From: Thermoplasmatota archaeon | GTDB lineage: Archaea; Thermoplasmatota; Thermoplasmata; GCA-020350865; JAUVCJ01 | DNA length: 23,203 nt | NCBI GenBank assembly: GCA_030595765.1 | Contig: JAUVCJ010000010.1 | Coordinates: forward strand, 1-23,203 | Direction of reading: 5' to 3' | Part shown: positions 7,606 through 21,520 of the stretch, one piece after another | How positions within the stretch are numbered: position 1 is the first letter of the stretch | How the letters are laid out: the number at the start of each line of letters is the position of its first letter | Notes under the pieces: model-generated | Database searches by the model: none | Seen by the model: the letters and a program-made list of their open reading frames with translations, nothing else | Told to the model about the DNA's origin: nothing | Made by a program: the position numbers and the translations under genes

Positions 7606-8580
7606 CTAATCCAGCACTTGCCTCTCAAGTATAAGCTCTAAAATAGTCTTCGGCTCGTCTGCTTTCTCAAGCTCCTTTCTGGATATGACTGGAGTACCCT
7701 CCAGACTTTCCTTTTCCGATCTTTCTATGAATATGACAGAGGGTCTCTCAACTATTGCTGAGATGGCAGCGGCGATCTTTGCCTTCCTGCGCACACCGCG
7801 TTCCTGCACGCTGATCCCGGTAAGCAGCACCTCGTCCTGGGCGCTAAGCGCATCGAAGGGGCATCTGGTCGTAGGTGTGACCCGGTATCCAAGGGAGGCT
7901 AGCCTGGTGAATACAGCCCTGTGAAAGCCTTCAGTGTTTGCAAAATCATCACTGACCTCCTCTACCTCGACAACCACCGAGGTTGGGTCCACCTCATGGA
8001 TTATGGGCTGGTCAAGAAACTCTTCAAGCCTAACAGCGGCATCGATCACTGCGCCCATGCCTTCCTCGTACATCTGGATGGTTCGTCTCGACACTCCAGC
8101 GATCTCAGCCAGGGTTCCCAGGGATATCTTGCGATGATGCCTGATCTCCCTGAGCAGTTCTCCGTCCAGGTGCACGTATAATCCTCCTGGAGCAGCGTAT
8201 ATGAAAGGAGGTATCCCCTCAACGAAATAGTTCTGGAGGGTGCCAAATGATATGATAGGTATTCCATGCCTGTAATAGACGATGTCGTCCTCGAGCCCAC
8301 CAGTCCCACCATGGGAGCCGATTATTATTGGAGCCGCACCCAAGCCGTTCGCCAGTATCTTAAGCTCTCTTGAATTGCCTTTGCTAAAGGAGTCTACATT
8401 CAAAAATACCTTGCAGACCAGCAATTTTTCGTCCCTTCGTGCAAGAAAATCGAAAGCTCCGCACCTGACCTGAGTTGGGTCTGATACAAAGAAACCGACC
8501 TTCGACAGGACATCACAGACCTGCGTCAGGAGATCTTCCCGCCGCATGAGCTTCAATACGACAGGCCTTCTATATATCAT
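7606..8580 (-). CDS. Archaeal putative HTH-type transcriptional regulator (MJ1164/COG1395-like)
   Basis: 324 aa. The N-terminal domain reads FDFLARRDEKLLVCKV...LGAAPIIIG. The central Cro/C1-type HTH reads LREIRHHRKISLGTLAEIAGVSRRTIQMYEEG. A C-terminal domain follows. The start is an ATG at 8580. Confidence 0.8.
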   Translation of the reverse strand: MIYRRPVVLKLMRREDLLTQVCDVLSKVGFFVSDPTQVRCGAFDFLARRDEKLLVCKVFLNVDSFSKGNSRELKILANGLGAAPIIIGSHGGTGGLEDDIVYYRHGIPIISFGTLQNYFVEGIPPFIYAAPGGLYVHLDGELLREIRHHRKISLGTLAEIAGVSRRTIQMYEEGMGAVIDAAVRLEEFLDQPIIHEVDPTSVVVEVEEVSDDFANTEGFHRAVFTRLASLGYRVTPTTRCPFDALSAQDEVLLTGISVQERGVRRKAKIAAAISAIVERPSVIFIERSEKESLEGTPVISRKELEKADEPKTILELILERQVLD

Positions 8581-8685
8581 TTCCTATGATTTTTCTTTCC
8601 CTGGGTGCCTTATTGACAAAACAGTGGCCTACCCTTCCTAAAAAGGCGGCGCCAGAAAATATGGTTGTTGCTCGAGAGAAAGATG

Positions 8686-8769
8686 ACTGATGGAATGACT
8701 GATGGAATGACTGATGAAAAGGCTGATGAAAAGGCTGATGAAAAGACTGATGAATAGGCTGATGAAAAG
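8686..8769. repeat. Intergenic tandem repeat, 12 nt x7 (RCTGATGRAWWG)
   Basis: Units are actgatggaatg x2, actgatgaaaag, gctgatgaaaag x2, actgatgaatag and gctgatgaaaag. The array sits between the divergent HTH regulator gene (ATG 8580) and the zinc-ribbon membrane protein gene (ATG 8807). Confidence 0.9.
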
Positions 8770-8775
8770 AAACGG

Positions 8776-13812: not shown

Positions 13813-14820
13813 CTAGCGCCTTGCCCTGTGCAGGGATAATTTTCTTTTTGGAGGGATGAAGCTCTTCCTGGGTAATGGGTCGTTAGGCCCTTTCATTGTT
13901 CGAGCCTTCCCCATGAATATGCAGACGCTCTCAACATCAGACCAGAGGTAGCTGCTCAGGCGCTTGTAATCCACCGAGTCCCAAAGCAGGTAGGCCAGGT
14001 CATCTGCCAATTCATTGCGCAAAGAGCAAAGGACCTCGTTGGGGTCTTCCTGCACCGTGAATATCTTTGGGGATATGCGAATGTCTAGTTCGGCATAGAA
14101 TCCATCCTGGGTCGGCTTGAGCATGACCGTACTATCTCCGCGTTTTCCACTGCCGCTATCTAGACCCTGGACAGACACTTTTCCGTTGCTGGATATGGTG
14201 GCCTTTTCTGGAACTAGCATGGTCTCTAAAAGGTTCAATATGAATTGCTCAACTTCCCTTATGGAGCTGGTAAGTTCAGTTCCCAAGAACGTGCTGGAGG
14301 CCTGAATGTGGAGGGAGGCGCTGAAGGCCTTTAACCCACTAATTTCCGGAGAGCCATTGATGATCTTGGGCTCAACAGATACTACTTTTCCTGCTTCCAT
14401 TGCGAAACAGGATAGGGCCACCCCGTCGGTCACCACCGAAAGCGTGTTCTTTTTGCCACCTCTTGCAATGAGCGTCTCATCATCTGTGTGGCTGTGGAAT
14501 ATCGAATGAACATCTGAAAGGTCGCGAAATTCGGCGTGGTAGTCATCCCTGAACGGATGGGAGTGATAGAGTCCGACTATGCCGGCGTTTCTGGGGTAAC
14601 CAGTTGCAATTCTAAATTCCTCCATGGGGTCAGCGTGTGCACCCACTCTGGATTGGTGCAGGTACTTTCTGCATTGTACAGCATCCATGACAAATATCTC
14701 ATTCCTGAACCTGTAACCGGTCAGCCAGCCCAACACCTCATTGCCGCTGGACTTAGCCTCTTCCAGTGCATGCCCCAGCAAACCTTGCACTGAGGACTCT
14801 GTCATGGTAACATCTACCAT
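13813..14820 (-). CDS. JAMM/MPN+ metalloprotease-domain protein (335 aa) with a long uncharacterised C-terminal extension
   Basis: The motif elements are GNEVLGWLTG (Glu), GLYHSHPF (HxH) and FHSHTDDE (SxxD). ATG 14820 (MVDVTMTESS) lies 4 nt after the E1 stop. The track start at 14931 would overlap E1 by 107 nt. Confidence 0.75.
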   Translation of the reverse strand: MVDVTMTESSVQGLLGHALEEAKSSGNEVLGWLTGYRFRNEIFVMDAVQCRKYLHQSRVGAHADPMEEFRIATGYPRNAGIVGLYHSHPFRDDYHAEFRDLSDVHSIFHSHTDDETLIARGGKKNTLSVVTDGVALSCFAMEAGKVVSVEPKIINGSPEISGLKAFSASLHIQASSTFLGTELTSSIREVEQFILNLLETMLVPEKATISSNGKVSVQGLDSGSGKRGDSTVMLKPTQDGFYAELDIRISPKIFTVQEDPNEVLCSLRNELADDLAYLLWDSVDYKRLSSYLWSDVESVCIFMGKARTMKGPNDPLPRKSFIPPKRKLSLHRARR

Positions 14821-14824
14821 TTGC

Positions 14825-16015
14825 TCAATCCCTCCCATTCTCTTTGCTGGAGATCTCATCGAAAATCCTGGCAGCCCTATCCAATACATCAGGGCTCGGC
14901 CTTGGGATGCGGCTCTTGCCAGTCTCATCATTTACATCAGTTCTGTCATCCTTGTCATCGGCTCCTTCCTCGTCATCCTGAGTTCCGACATCATTATCCT
15001 CAGCCCTTTCTTCCGCCTCTTGGGCTCTGCCATCGCTATCATCAGCCCCTTCCTCGTCCTCTTGGGCTTTACCATCGCTATCATCAGTTCTTTTCTCGTT
15101 CTTTTGAGCTCTGCCGTCGCCGCAGATTGGGCACCCCGGATCCAACACCCAGTCCACCCTTTGGAGTGTGCCATCGGCTCCGTCGTAGATGAGGTATGGA
15201 GCCACGCTACCAAAGCCAAGCAGATGCTTGAAGGCTTCCTGGCACTGAAGGGAGGCGATGATCGACATCGTTGTTGGCAAGGATGTGACGTGACATAGAC
15301 CTGTGACGTGGTCAGGCGCATTCGGGTCCGGCTTAGGCTTGAAACCAGTCATGCCATGAGATTCGGTAAGCGGCCTGTTGCAACGGTAGCAAGGAGTTTC
15401 TCCTGGTAGCACAACATGGACACTGCCCCGTATGCCATCCAGGCTGGTGCCGCCATCAAATAGTGGGACTCCAGCTTTAACGCACTTAGCATTCAGGAAT
15501 AGCCTGACCCCAAAACTATCTACACATCCAAATAATGCATCGACTTTCTGATCCTCACTACTTCCTTCATTTCCCTCATTTCCTTCACAGCCTTCACCAC
15601 TTTTATCGCTATTAATGCTGTATAGGAGTCTGGAGTATCCCTTGTCGATAGTCACGTCCTGGGAGTTTGCTATGACCTTTGTGTCTGGGTTTGCAAGCTG
15701 AAGGTACTGGGCAATGGCATCGACTTTTGGCATCCCAACCTGGTCTGGTCTGTATATGAGCCTGTTCATGTTGGCCTGCTCCAAAGTGTCGTAATCAAAT
15801 ATCTCAAGGGTGCCAATGCCGCAACGAGCCAGTATGTCACAGACCACTGCACCCAAACCACCCACTCCAACAACTATTACCTTCATGGATCTGAGCCTTC
15901 CAAAATCCGCATGTGGAAACAGACCCAGTCTATGGTATCGGTCAGGCTCCATTGTATCACCATCCAACTCATCTCCTAACTCATCTCCCATTTCATTTCC
16001 CATCTCATTTCCCAT
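14825..16015 (-). CDS. UBA5-like E1 (ThiF/MoeB-fold ubiquitin-fold-modifier activating enzyme), 396 aa
   Basis: Motifs are VVGVGGLGAVVCDILARCGIGTLEIFDYDTLEQANMNRLIYRPDQVG, zinc cysteines CYRC and CPIC, and GLCHVTSLPTTMSIIASLQ (Cys codon at 15293-15295). These are near-colinear with human UBA5 as I remember it. ATG 16015 shares a base with the E2 stop (TGATG). The track start at 16024 is a GTG. Confidence 0.85.
   Translation of the reverse strand: MGNEMGNEMGDELGDELDGDTMEPDRYHRLGLFPHADFGRLRSMKVIVVGVGGLGAVVCDILARCGIGTLEIFDYDTLEQANMNRLIYRPDQVGMPKVDAIAQYLQLANPDTKVIANSQDVTIDKGYSRLLYSINSDKSGEGCEGNEGNEGSSEDQKVDALFGCVDSFGVRLFLNAKCVKAGVPLFDGGTSLDGIRGSVHVVLPGETPCYRCNRPLTESHGMTGFKPKPDPNAPDHVTGLCHVTSLPTTMSIIASLQCQEAFKHLLGFGSVAPYLIYDGADGTLQRVDWVLDPGCPICGDGRAQKNEKRTDDSDGKAQEDEEGADDSDGRAQEAEERAEDNDVGTQDDEEGADDKDDRTDVNDETGKSRIPRPSPDVLDRAARIFDEISSKENGRD
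14927..15094 (-). repeat. In-frame tandem repeat, ~42 nt (14 aa) x ~4, forming the acidic tail of the E1
   Basis: The protein reads DDSDGKAQEDEEGA / DDSDGRAQEAEERAE / DNDVGTQDDEEGA / DDKDDRTDVNDE. The DNA units gccatcgctatcatcag...cctcgtcctcttgggct are visibly repeated. Confidence 0.8.
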
Positions 16016-16497
16016 CAGATCCACCCCTTTTTATCCAGGTCGAAAATGATGGCTTGCACCCAGTAGGAGATCTCTCGTTTCATGTATAGGGCGATACCAC
16101 AGTGTTCGTTCCACCAGTAGTTGCTTTCCATGTGCATGTCGCAAAGCCTCAGGCCAAGAACCTCGTCTTCAAGCTTTCTGTCAGTGTATTTCATGAGCGC
16201 CGGGATGGATGCGGCCGGTGGGGTAAACGGATACGAATTTTTCAGGATCAGGGTAAACTCATAGTCCTGGCGTTTTGGAGGGCTAATGATGCCAGTCCAG
16301 CGTGTGGCGCTTTCATCAGTGGGTCTGATGGAGAACCATCTGCGGCTTCCATCGCCTTTCTCAAGGTAGTCCAGATATTCCATGAGCTTCAGGAGGGCAT
16401 ATTTTTCCTCCTTTACCCTCATGTCCCACCCCTTCTCCCCTGGAGATACCACTGTGGAGCATTGAAGGAAGTAGAAAAGGTCTTCTTCCTTTTTCAT
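16015..16497 (-). CDS. UFC1-like E2 (ubiquitin-fold modifier conjugating enzyme-like), 160 aa
   Basis: The sequence RVKEEKYALL...RWFSIRPTDESATRWTG...DYEFTLILKNSYPFTPPAASIPAL...GLRLCDMH...CGIALYM...DLDKKG is colinear with human UFC1 as I remember it (RLKEEYQSL...[16 protein letters not shown]...[26 protein letters not shown]...GKICLTDH...FGLAHLM...DLIQKG). The candidate catalytic Cys codon is at 16141-16143. There is no HPN motif. Confidence 0.8.
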   Translation of the reverse strand: MKKEEDLFYFLQCSTVVSPGEKGWDMRVKEEKYALLKLMEYLDYLEKGDGSRRWFSIRPTDESATRWTGIISPPKRQDYEFTLILKNSYPFTPPAASIPALMKYTDRKLEDEVLGLRLCDMHMESNYWWNEHCGIALYMKREISYWVQAIIFDLDKKGWI

Positions 16498-18251: not shown

Positions 18252-18699
18252 TTAAAATAATATCTCATTAACACTCTCCCATTCAAGCCAATCCATTCAA
18301 GATTTCAGCCTTATACATAGCCTTATACAACGGCTTGTCCAGCATATCCGGCACTAGCTCCGAGTGGGACAAGTAGGATAAGTAATAATATATTCTAATG
18401 TCATACGGGATGGGCAATAATTAACAGTGTATGGGTAGAATAATTAAGATGAGGGCGAGTAGAATAATGAAACACCCAAGAGTGTGAAAAGTGTGAAAAG
18501 TAATAACTCGGAATGATTCGATAGAGGCAAGTAGGATTGTTCATACTTCTCCTACTCCGGCCTGGTTTGGGTCTGGTCTACTTGTTTAACCAGAATGTAG
18601 GTGTAAAAATGGTTCTCAGCACTCATAGGGTTCATCAAGTATCAGCCGACCACGTTTCATCATCGAACCGGTCAAGAATGTTGCATATTGCTTAAAAAG

Positions 18700-18707
18700 T
18701 TATATAT
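18700..18707 (+). promoter_or_regulatory. Strong TATA-like box (preceded by an A-rich BRE-like stretch)
   Basis: The sequence is aaaaag-TTATATAT. The predicted TSS at ~18729 coincides with the first base of the 24-nt repeat array. Confidence 0.35.
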
Positions 18708-18728
18708 CAAAGAACACATTTGTTAATC

Positions 18729-18872
18729 CAGTACAAGGTCATATTGCAGACCCGATATACGGCCACTTTGCAAACCCGGCACAAGGCCATCTTCCAGGCC
18801 TGACACGCGGTCAATTTGCAGACTAGGCAAAAAGCCATCTTGCAGACCCAGTACAATATCCTCTTGAGGGGA
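18729..18872 (+). repeat. Degenerate tandem repeat, 24 nt x6, ending 6 nt before the coiled-coil gene ATG
   Basis: Units are cagtacaaggtcatattgcagacc / cgatatacggccactttgcaaacc / cggcacaaggccatcttccaggcc / tgacacgcggtcaatttgcagact / aggcaaaaagccatcttgcagacc / cagtacaatatcctcttgagggga. Confidence 0.8.
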
Positions 18873-18878
18873 AATACT

Positions 18879-21374
18879 ATGAATCTTCCTGGCGGAAAGA
18901 CAGCAATGACATCACTCGGTGGCAGAGAGTCCCTTGACAAGATACTTGCAGAATCCAGCAATCCTGGGTTTAGCGGGTATCTATTGACATCCATGGTATC
19001 AAAGGGCACTCCATGCACTGGATATCTGGTCATCAAGAAAGGAAAACCTGTCCTGGCAAGTTGGGAAGGGGATGTATTGCTCAAAAGAGAGCCAGCTGCC
19101 ACAAGACTACTAGCCGATGCACTAAAAGAGGATTCGGTTCTGGAGTTGCATAGTTTTTCATACGGCTCATCAACCATCAATGTGAGCTACCTAGTCAAGC
19201 AATACAAAGATTCAAAGCTGGCAGATCTGGATTTTGATGTAGAGCAGGAGCTGGCCAGAGCCGCTGAAGAACTGAGAAGCGAACTTGATACTGAGCGGAG
19301 CCAGAGAGATGCCCAGGCAAAAGCATTGCGAACCCAGACCGACATAGAATCGGCGCTTCATGAAAGTAGCTGGGATTCAGCAAAGAAGGAAGACCTGCTC
19401 AGGGAAAGGGAAGCTTCCATAGAGTCTCTACGCCAGGAGCTGGACTCGGTTCGCCATGGAAGCATGGCAATACTCAAGCATCTTACCAAAAAGCAGGAGG
19501 GAAGCCTTGGCCAGGATGATGTAGTTGCACTTGCAGAAAGAAAGGTCGAGGGCATTCGTCTAGCTCAGGAGCGAGAGCGCTTGCAACGACATGAGGAGAA
19601 GCTCCAGACACAGACATCCGAGCTTGAGCAGGAAAGGACCAAGCTCCGCAAGAAAGAGGAGTTTCTCAGGCAGAAAGGACTAGAGAACAAGCGCGAGGGA
19701 GCTGCTGTACAGAAGGAACGCAAGGACCTGGATAAGATCTGGAAAGAACTTGAGGATCAGACCAATGTAATATCAGGCCAGCGAGAGAGCCTTGAGGCCA
19801 GTGCAGCTCAACAGCTTGCAAGGGAACAGGCCATGCTCAGGAAGGAGGATGGACTCAGGGAGCTAAAGGATGATCTAGGCCGTGAAAGGGTCGAAATGAC
19901 CAAAGAGAGAAAGGAGCTATCTCAAAGGCAGGAAGAGGTGGCCAGGAGCAAGGAGGATTTGTCCTCCAGAATGGAAGCGCTTGAGGAATCCAGCCAGGAG
20001 CTGGCCCAGCTACAGAAGGAGCTGAAGGGTAAGAGCAGGGCCCTGGAAACAGAGTCAAAGGCTCTTGACAGGGTAAGGCGAGAGCTTGAAAAGGGAACCC
20101 AGGAGGCTGATGCGAGGGATAATGAGCTTACCGAACTAGAGGAAGCATTATCCAGGCAGGAAAAGAGCCTTAACCTCAAGAAGAGCAGGCTTGAGAAATC
20201 AGAACTAGCTCAGAAAAAGGCTGATAAGAAGAATGTTTCCCTCAAGAAATCCTTGGATCACCAGAAGAAGGCGCTAAAGGGATTGGAAAGTGACCTGGCT
20301 AAACGAGAGAAGAGCTTGGCAGAGAAAATAGAGATCAACACCCAGGCCGCAAAGGACCTGGCTGTACATGAGCGCGAGCTGGCAAAGATCACACGTGCAA
20401 ATAACAAGATGCTTATGGAAATAAAGGAAAAGGAAGGCCTGCTAGCTGAAACAGAAGGGAACCTTGATGAGCGGCATGGCGCTTTGAACCTGCTTGAGAG
20501 TGAGCTTGAAGAGCGTTCAGAGCAGCAGGATGGTAGAGCTGAGGAACTGGAACTGCTTAGCAGGGAAATGGATAAGCGCGAGTTGGAGCTAAGAACCAGT
20601 TCATCCGAGCTCCAAAAGGAAAAGAAGGAAGGCGAAAGGGAGCTTGCCCAAGCAAGGAAGAAGATGCAGAAGCTCCAAAAGGATGTATCTGCCGAGAGCC
20701 TGGCACTTGTTGTTGTTAGAGAGGAGCTCGAAGGACGGGAATCCCAGATCCAGGTGACCGAGTCTGACCTATCTGAGGAGCGTGCTACATTGGAGGAGCT
20801 TTCCACCAGCCTGATGCTCAAAGGCGAATCTCTGGAGCAGAGAGAAAAATCTCAAGCAGCCAGTCTGAAGGAGCTTGAGAAGGAAACAAAATCCACAAAA
20901 AAGGCTCTGGATTCCAGGGAAAATATGTTTGGCCAGCAGCAGACCGAGCTTGCAGGAGAACAGAAGGAACTTGCCCAGTCCATCAAGAATTTGGGCAAGG
21001 AAGCCAAGCTGGTAGAAAAAGATAAGGCCAGGATGGAAAAGGATTTCGAGAAGAGGGAGAGAGGGTTCAGTGTCAAGGAAATACAGCTTCTGGACAAGGA
21101 GCAGTCCCAAAAGGATGAAGCCACCAGAATTTCAGAGCTCATAGAGGCTCAGGAAGAGCGTGAGACCATTCTAAAGTCTGGCGAGAAGGAGTTAGCAGGC
21201 AGGGAGAATCAACTCAAGGACCAGGAAAAAGCGTTGGCTGCCAGGGAAAAGGCAATGAAGAAGAAGGAAAAAGAGGTTCTAGCCCTGAAAGAGAGCATGG
21301 AGGACCGAAAGCGGAGCTTTGATGATCGCAGGTCTGAGCTGGAAAAGATCCGTAAAGGACTTCAAGACCTCTGA
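18879..21374 (+). CDS. Large coiled-coil protein (831 aa) with a ~110-aa N-terminal globular domain
   Basis: The N-terminal domain reads FSGYLLTSMVSKGTPCTGYLVIKKGKPVLASWEGD...VLELHSFSYG. About 700 aa of E/K/L/R/Q-rich heptad-like sequence follow (ELE..., KEL..., LEE... reiterated). No Walker motifs or TM segments are seen. The first ATG is at 18879; the track start at 18816 is a TTG inside the repeat array. Confidence 0.8.
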   Translation: MNLPGGKTAMTSLGGRESLDKILAESSNPGFSGYLLTSMVSKGTPCTGYLVIKKGKPVLASWEGDVLLKREPAATRLLADALKEDSVLELHSFSYGSSTINVSYLVKQYKDSKLADLDFDVEQELARAAEELRSELDTERSQRDAQAKALRTQTDIESALHESSWDSAKKEDLLREREASIESLRQELDSVRHGSMAILKHLTKKQEGSLGQDDVVALAERKVEGIRLAQERERLQRHEEKLQTQTSELEQERTKLRKKEEFLRQKGLENKREGAAVQKERKDLDKIWKELEDQTNVISGQRESLEASAAQQLAREQAMLRKEDGLRELKDDLGRERVEMTKERKELSQRQEEVARSKEDLSSRMEALEESSQELAQLQKELKGKSRALETESKALDRVRRELEKGTQEADARDNELTELEEALSRQEKSLNLKKSRLEKSELAQKKADKKNVSLKKSLDHQKKALKGLESDLAKREKSLAEKIEINTQAAKDLAVHERELAKITRANNKMLMEIKEKEGLLAETEGNLDERHGALNLLESELEERSEQQDGRAEELELLSREMDKRELELRTSSSELQKEKKEGERELAQARKKMQKLQKDVSAESLALVVVREELEGRESQIQVTESDLSEERATLEELSTSLMLKGESLEQREKSQAASLKELEKETKSTKKALDSRENMFGQQQTELAGEQKELAQSIKNLGKEAKLVEKDKARMEKDFEKRERGFSVKEIQLLDKEQSQKDEATRISELIEAQEERETILKSGEKELAGRENQLKDQEKALAAREKAMKKKEKEVLALKESMEDRKRSFDDRRSELEKIRKGLQDL

Positions 21375-21440: not shown

Positions 21441-21520
21441 CCAGTTCATCTCTACTCCAGTTCACTTTTACACAAGTTCATCGTTACGCAATCTAATCTT
21501 TACATCAGTTCATCACATCA
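21441..21520 (+). repeat. Degenerate tandem repeat, 16 nt x5 (core CAGTTCAYC), 67 nt downstream of the coiled-coil gene stop
   Basis: Units are ccagttcatctctact / ccagttcacttttaca / caagttcatcgttacg / caatctaatctttaca / tcagttcatcacatca. Confidence 0.6.

Follow-up and report, generated by a model that had tools for sequence, protein, structure and literature searches.

The tandem array at positions 18729-18872 of the window (the whole 23,203-nt stretch of DNA that was analysed) is best explained as a lineage-specific, near-neutral, non-coding minisatellite in the satellite-prone genome of a Thermoplasmata-type archaeon, a reading to which a probability of about 0.6 may be assigned. The array appears to lie immediately ahead of a gene encoding an 831-aa coiled-coil protein, where it would separate the promoter from the ribosome-binding site, and would be transcribed, most likely, from a TATA box at 18700-18707. 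The first-pass annotation of this DNA had interpreted the repeats as a multivalent binding platform, at the level of either the RNA or the DNA, which controls the coiled-coil gene. The geometry on which that interpretation was built, that is, the promoter and the predicted leader made of repeats, has held, while the functional inference has found no support.

The array consists of six head-to-tail units on the plus strand, which begin at 18729, 18753, 18777, 18801, 18825, and 18849, in an exact 24-nt phase, free of indels, that is reflected in the self-identity of the sequence at lags of 24 and 48 nt. The first five units are clear, matching their consensus at 17-21 of the 24 positions and one another at 14-19 of 24 (58-79%), with an overall identity of about 69%. 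The sixth, which merges into the ribosome-binding site, is degenerate, with 12 of 24 positions matching the consensus and 15 of 24 matching unit 1, including the first 8 bases, which are common to these two units. The self-identity at lag 24 is 0.583, a value reached by none of 5000 dinucleotide-preserving shuffles, for which the best lag between 8 and 60 was taken in each case (mean 0.35, maximum 0.47), and the six tandem units of the first-pass annotation are thus borne out. The self-identity at lag 48 is higher still (0.635), because the odd-numbered units are the most alike (17-19/24 with each other, against 14-16/24 for neighbouring units), which indicates a higher-order period of 48 nt. 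This is the pattern expected for a re-duplicated 48-nt dimer, and is typical of the way in which satellites grow. The indel-free phase, which has been kept even though approximately 20% of the positions depart from the consensus, may be a sign of constraint, or of a homogenisation that is still under way.

A repeat search recovered five copies at an exact 24-nt spacing, with 67-75% identity to unit 1, together with a second repeat family, in which units 1, 3, and 6 are linked by their opening 19 nt. The array is taken to be old and decayed because TRF, at its default stringency, sees just 2.4 copies (score 58). The longest word that the units have in common, TTGCAGACC, is intact in only two of them. 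By alignment-based criteria alone, the array qualifies as a satellite, given that its period is constant over at least four head-to-tail copies, its regularity is above chance, and it is non-coding, locally generated, and composed of a unit unique to the locus. It does not conform to the SATFIND rule, in which an exact decamer occurs at least four times at a regular spacing, and is absent from the 49 satellites recovered by a SATFIND-like scan of the same genome. The units abut, with no spacers between them of the type found in a CRISPR array.

A TRF census of the 2.29-Mb assembly, in which arrays with a period of at least 14 nt and at least three copies were merged, returned 181 arrays (79/Mb), with 93 inside ORFs and 80 outside ORFs. 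The period is divisible by 3 in 88 of the 93 coding arrays, whereas those of the 80 non-coding arrays are distributed 30:22:28 over the residues modulo 3 (37.5% divisible by 3), and this contrast indicates that the division into coding and non-coding arrays is sound. The median non-coding array has a period of 24 nt, 3.7 copies, and 77% identity, while the base composition of the arrays throughout the genome is that of the intergenic background (27% A, against 29%). The array at 18729-18872 is a typical member of this set. An all-against-all blastn comparison of the 80 non-coding arrays identified no families, each array having a sequence of its own, and the genome-wide search for further copies of the unit, which the first-pass annotation had called for, found none in the 2.29-Mb assembly. 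A mobile element or a dispersed repeat family is rejected on these grounds, that is, the lack of a second copy of either the unit or the array, and of any blastn family. The density of the arrays is similar in co-directional (0.34 per kb), divergent (0.23), and convergent spacers (0.30; chi-square p=0.43), which implies that they have no preference for the spacers that bear promoters.

Other arrays in this genome include, for example, those at C184:5740-5823, C3:2225-2359, C23:6656-6826, and C258:6702-6898. Within the window itself, an unrelated array of 4.5 copies of a 16-nt unit is located at 21443-21514, 68 nt past the stop codon of the coiled-coil gene, and an array of seven 12-nt units is found at 8683-8770, in a spacer bordered by the gene that occupies 7606-8580.

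The arrays of this type appear to be specific to the lineage. A sample of 507 kb from related genomes, comprising 400 kb from three relatives and a further 107.5 kb made up of the surroundings of the orthologous gene in 35 relatives, contains only eight arrays, all with a period divisible by 3, where approximately 40 arrays would be expected at the rate of the present genome, some 13 of them with other periods. The relatives sampled thus have essentially no non-coding arrays. Conservation of the repeats upstream of the orthologues, on which the first-pass annotation had made its platform depend, is likewise not seen in the relatives compared. In the 400-700 nt upstream of the orthologue in approximately 34 distinct relatives, all of them distant (no more than 39% identity in the N-terminal domain), TRF reports no array that combines a period above 12 nt with more than three copies, and the best windowed self-identity does not exceed 0.52, against 0.63 in this genome. 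The genome is the only one of its family among the relatives compared, with the closest orthologue having 39% identity in the N-terminal domain, and the others less. No closer relatives were found in metagenome contigs (using the N-terminal 174 aa as the query), in a set of 5.8 billion proteins, or by an exact look-up of the neighbouring Hjc, and there is no record of an identical, or nearly identical, locus in any other source searched. The repeat unit has a weak and ambiguous similarity to the TSS region and proximal promoter of the relatives, and homology between them was set aside for this reason.

The gene downstream of the array (18879..21374, plus strand) was delimited by its ORF and by the alignment of the orthologues. 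All 19 of the aligned orthologues start with M-x-[LIV]-P-x-G-[KR] at the position of the ATG, and this common N-terminus fixes the start codon at 18879, as in the first-pass annotation. The protein has a globular N-terminal domain of 130 aa (18879-19274), followed by approximately 700 aa of coiled coil. The N-terminal domain was found in 26 of 41 relatives, and the family is present in 201 of the 401 genomes of the class that were sampled (E<=1e-10), often as two paralogues per genome. Searches of Pfam and NCBIfam found no domain in the protein beyond coiled-coil noise against SMC, and no match to a DNA-binding domain. The AF2 model of the N-terminal domain has a pLDDT of 92.7, and a Foldseek comparison of this model with the PDB returned no fold match (best E 0.046, TM 0.25). 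The array has as its neighbours the genes for Hjc, for a C/D box sRNA, and for the coiled-coil protein itself, with no rep gene, regulator gene, or origin features adjoining the repeats. Elsewhere in the window, on the minus strand, a UFC1-like E2 (E 4e-9), a ThiF-type E1, and a JAB-domain protein are encoded one after the other at 13813-16497.

The position of the array relative to the promoter was evaluated against the upstream geometry of the genome, as derived from crude gene calls. In the genes that lack a Shine-Dalgarno (SD) sequence, A/T hexamers peak at -30 genome-wide, which is indicative of leaderless transcripts, whereas in 220 genes with an SD they lie at -60 to -40, as expected of short leaders. 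An SD is present in about a quarter of the genes, so that the genome is mixed, and the earlier impression of a mostly leaderless geometry, gained from the other genes of the window, does not hold for the genome. A 16-column BRE/TATA matrix (consensus CCAAAACCTTTATATC) was trained on the upstream regions of the non-SD genes, in which its modal start is 38 nt before the start codon, which was adopted as the offset from the start of the matrix to the TSS, and its median score is 6.25 bits. On the plus strand, the best site in the region, at 18693..18708, scores 11.1 bits (the 99.999th percentile of random genomic positions), and includes the TATA box TTATATAT at 18700-18707, as first annotated. 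The TSS predicted from this site is at 18731 (+/-2), 2 nt into unit 1, and the earlier estimate of about 18729 is upheld as a prediction.

All the other plus-strand sites in the region score 3.7 bits or less. These include everything downstream of the start of the array, and ACAATAT in unit 6, previously offered as a possible weak TATA box for a leaderless transcript, finds no support in the matrix. A leaderless promoter in unit 6 can be discarded on this basis, and given that the SD is retained in the orthologues of the same order. Because the distal BRE/TATA site is strong and no credible proximal promoter exists, the array most likely constitutes the predicted leader of the coiled-coil gene, of approximately 148 nt, made almost wholly of repeats and ending in a GAGGGG Shine-Dalgarno sequence, so the leader of about 150 nt initially proposed is still the best prediction. 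The array has no run of four or more T of the kind that would stop an archaeal polymerase. The SD-like GAGGGG itself, which the first-pass annotation had not recorded, is located at 18866-18871 (-13 to -8), a position that fits the genome-wide SD peak, and GGAGG is found at the same place in the orthologues of the same order, which argues that the mRNA carries a leader. In both the MFE and the centroid folds of the leader, a small hairpin (UCCUC:GGGGA) is predicted in unit 6, at 18859..18872 on the plus strand. This hairpin, which is worth -4.5 to -5.0 kcal/mol by itself, would partly sequester the SD-like GAGGGG, and could damp translation, but it is not a property of the repeats. The leaders predicted for 18 orthologues are mostly 6-60 nt in length, with one of 107 nt, and the leader of the present gene would fall within this range, at approximately 28 nt (unit 6 plus 6 nt), if units 1-5 were removed.

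The same A/T-rich core would also serve an sRNA gene on the opposite strand, which was absent from the first-pass annotation. An sR41-like C/D box sRNA was identified in a local search at 18612..18668 on the minus strand (RF01126, 36.7 bits, E 7e-07). This score is below the gathering score of the family (54), yet the C, D', C', and D boxes are present, as is the same D guide, CCCUAUGAG, which is conserved, and a run of five T follows the 3' end of the sRNA. The gene is conserved in the class and divergent from the coiled-coil gene, the guide motif being found divergently upstream of the latter in the loci of 21 of 33 relatives. Its predicted BRE/TATA site (18691..18706, minus strand) scores 4.5 bits (99.6th percentile), and places the TSS at 18668. 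The Rfam match has its 5' end at this very base, which represents an independent check on the 38-nt offset. The overlap of this site with that on the plus strand suggests a compact, bidirectional A/T core common to the sRNA and the coiled-coil gene. A stronger minus-strand match to the matrix, at 18602-18617 (10.8 bits), was rejected as a promoter, as it is probably the T5 terminator run that follows the sRNA. The rRNA target of the sR41-like sRNA is absent from this assembly.

Among the relatives, Hjc is found further upstream only in the three of order level. The spacer between Hjc and the sRNA (window 18252-18611) is approximately 365 nt in length, against approximately 50 nt in an order-level relative (L008), and is made up largely of short local duplications. 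The sequence AGTGTGAAA occurs twice at 18481-18501, and its counterparts, repeats of AGTATGAAA, lie just past the 3' end of the sRNA in the order-level relatives L008, L013, L046, and L050. Read on the minus strand, these repeats are CTTTTC runs, and may be terminators of the sRNA.

The minisatellite reading can be set out as a sequence of events. The array would have grown by local tandem duplication, through either slippage or unequal exchange, in which the 24-nt unit was duplicated first, and then, probably, the 48-nt dimer, lengthening the 5' leader from approximately 28 nt to approximately 148 nt. The limits of the array would have been set by two elements that cannot be disturbed, the promoter with its TSS at one end and the SD at the other. 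Expression would be affected only as a by-product, for example through the longer leader or the small SD hairpin of unit 6, with no dedicated factor that binds the repeats. The predicted position of the array within a leader is unusual in this genome, and keeps the regulatory readings alive. In 25 of the 55 pairs formed by an array and an adjacent gene start, a good promoter separates the two, and only two pairs, the present locus and C184:5740-5823, have a strong TATA box, array, SD, and ATG in succession, with no promoter downstream of the array. This is the pattern to be expected if arrays can persist in leaders only where the promoter and the SD are spared.

The main competitor is a dedicated, multivalent binding platform, which, when its RNA and DNA versions are considered jointly, is a minority expectation that nevertheless deserves to be weighed. 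Overall, it finds no support in a unit that is unique in the genome and set among some 80 unrelated non-coding arrays, with no counterpart upstream of approximately 34 orthologues, no core conserved significantly above chance, and no hairpin common to the units. In its RNA version, which is unlikely, a motif with the core UUGCAGACC would recur five or six times in the leader of approximately 148 nt, and the binding of a protein or of a small RNA to this motif would control the translation or stability of the coiled-coil mRNA, perhaps through the SD hairpin of unit 6. The predicted TSS at unit 1, the termination of the array in the SD, the 24-nt phase kept without indels, and the rarity of this layout, found in only two arrays of the genome, are all in agreement with such a platform, as is the distribution of the substitutions from the consensus over the thirds of the unit (12:8:4), the 3' third having the fewest. 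This skew is not significant, however, in permutation tests (P 0.18-0.44 overall, with 0.18 obtained when the best 9-column window is scored and 0.30 when the invariant columns are counted), and the conservation of the apparent core TTGCAGACC is not significantly better than chance. A hairpin common to the units is ruled out, since GGYC-N8-GRCC forms only in units 1 and 3, and the fold of the putative leader, a check that the first-pass annotation had proposed, is unremarkable (z = -1.74, matched by 6 of 200 shuffles), which provides no case for a distinctively structured leader. An Rfam search of the 649-nt spacer, even at E<=10, returned no match covering the array, which argues against a known RNA family. 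The adjacent C/D sRNA was also discarded as a guide acting on the leader, given that, in terms of duplex energy, 173 of 500 shuffled leaders pair with it as well as the actual leader does. The motif is found nowhere else in the genome, and none of the orthologues compared has the array in its leader.

A further alternative, also unlikely, is that the repeat-built leader has become a functional scaffold, either as RNA or as DNA just downstream of the TSS, which titrates or recruits a factor and sets the dosage of the coiled-coil protein, having been born de novo from the propensity of the genome to form satellites. If true, this would be an example of a regulatory leader derived from a minisatellite.

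The DNA version of the platform, an operator array, is improbable. In this case, a transcription factor would bind the units cooperatively, and would either form a roadblock just past the TSS or act from an array located upstream of a weak proximal promoter, itself within units 5-6. The regularly phased direct repeats do abut the promoter, and the A-rich box in unit 5, which MAFFT aligned with the proximal promoter of the order-level relatives, scores 3.7 bits as a BRE/TATA site. This score corresponds only to the 99.35th percentile, however, and a TSS directed by this box would fall on the SD. No gene for a DNA-binding regulator adjoins the array, the rest of the genome contains no further copy of the site, and the array was not found at the orthologous loci. 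A spacing of 24 bp is equivalent to 2.3 helical turns, moreover, so that the bound proteins would not lie on one face of the helix, and in this genome convergent spacers carry arrays as often as divergent spacers do.

The possibility that the repeat is coding, either as a decayed or recoded N-terminal extension with an 8-aa repeat (x-Y/H-K-A/V-I-L-Q-T) in frame with the ATG, or as part of a 157-aa antisense ORF at 18707-19180, is very remote. In its favour, the period is a multiple of 3 and the units share the frame of the ATG, while no stop interrupts the minus-strand frame anywhere in the array. By hand count, in addition, seven of the eight third-codon positions vary, against four of eight for the first and second positions (a hypergeometric P of about 0.09 by hand, uncorrected for the six frames). 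Against it, an open frame in an 8-codon repeat is expected by chance approximately two times in three, unit 4 contains an in-frame TGA, the sole upstream start (TTG 18720) precedes the predicted TSS, the antisense ORF overlaps the conserved N-terminal domain and has no support of its own, and the conserved M-x-L-P-x-G-K is the N-terminus of every one of the 19 orthologues, with the SD directly upstream. The TGA, the conserved N-terminus, and the SD are the grounds on which both forms are rejected.

Under the minisatellite reading, the array has little consequence for the coiled-coil gene, and most likely only lengthens its 5' leader. The more useful result is at the level of the genome, and is best appreciated by comparison with the repeat systems that are already known.

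Reiterated motifs in a 5' leader are familiar from RNA-binding regulators such as TRAP, which binds an array of (G/U)AG triplets in the trp leader of Bacillus, and CsrA, which binds GGA arrays. In these systems, on which the RNA-level reading of the first-pass annotation is modelled, the sites are short cores with variable spacers, they show conservation between species, and the protein that recognises them is known. The present array resembles them in having reiterated motifs in a predicted 5' leader that runs up to the ribosome-binding site, and differs in that the whole 24-nt unit is repeated, with no core that stands out statistically and no conservation, the leaders of the orthologues in approximately 34 distant genomes having no such array. 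At the level of the DNA, phased repeats are found in the iterons bound by plasmid Rep proteins and in the reiterated boxes over the TSS that are bound by archaeal repressors. The array shares with these systems its phased direct repeats, of approximately 20 bp, adjoining a promoter, but no rep or regulator gene, or any feature of an origin, lies next to it, no second site is found in the genome, the spacing does not correspond to an integral number of helical turns, and the array is not conserved.

The Borg elements provide a closer parallel. In the intergenic arrays of these elements, for which a regulatory or ncRNA role has been proposed, but not shown, 14-38% of the periods are divisible by 3 (Schoelmerich et al. 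2023, PMC9879509). As in the Borgs (PMC9879509), array formation is specific to the genome, each locus has its own unit, partial units flank the arrays, and the coding arrays have periods divisible by 3, while this is true of only a minority of the intergenic ones (14-38% in the Borgs, 37.5% here). The Borg repeats are perfect, recent, and A-rich, however, whereas the arrays of the present genome are degenerate (median identity of 77%) and have the composition of the background, as does the array examined here, with a unit identity of 58-79% and 29% A. These arrays are located, in addition, on a chromosome-type contig with housekeeping genes.

The array is closest to the non-coding satellites known from a few archaea (PMC6749651). 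Among prokaryotes, Methanosarcina and Methanobrevibacter are rich in such non-coding satellites, which are otherwise rare (Subirana & Messeguer 2019, PMC6749651), with medians of 0-3/Mb and more than 4/Mb in only 21 of 142 archaeal species, while densities above 20/Mb were found, among the archaea, only in Methanosarcina, Methanobrevibacter, and Methanococcus voltae, together with two Burkholderia chromosomes (PMC6749651). The SATFIND-like scan of the present genome, a re-implementation that approximates the original criterion and is not the original program, gives 21/Mb. The likeness extends to the head-to-tail units of 10-60 nt, the short arrays, the unique sequences scattered over the genome, the proportion of about half that is non-coding, judging by the period, and an abundance that depends strongly on the genome. 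The differences are that the array described here is too degenerate for the rule of an exact decamer present four times, and that its host is an uncultured Thermoplasmata-type archaeon, a group that was not singled out in that survey. This genome has a density of non-coding arrays otherwise reported mainly for Methanosarcina, Methanobrevibacter, and the Borg elements. Given this, its single arrays should not each be read as a candidate regulatory device, and the lineage may represent a case for the study of the growth of archaeal spacers and long 5' leaders by local duplication.
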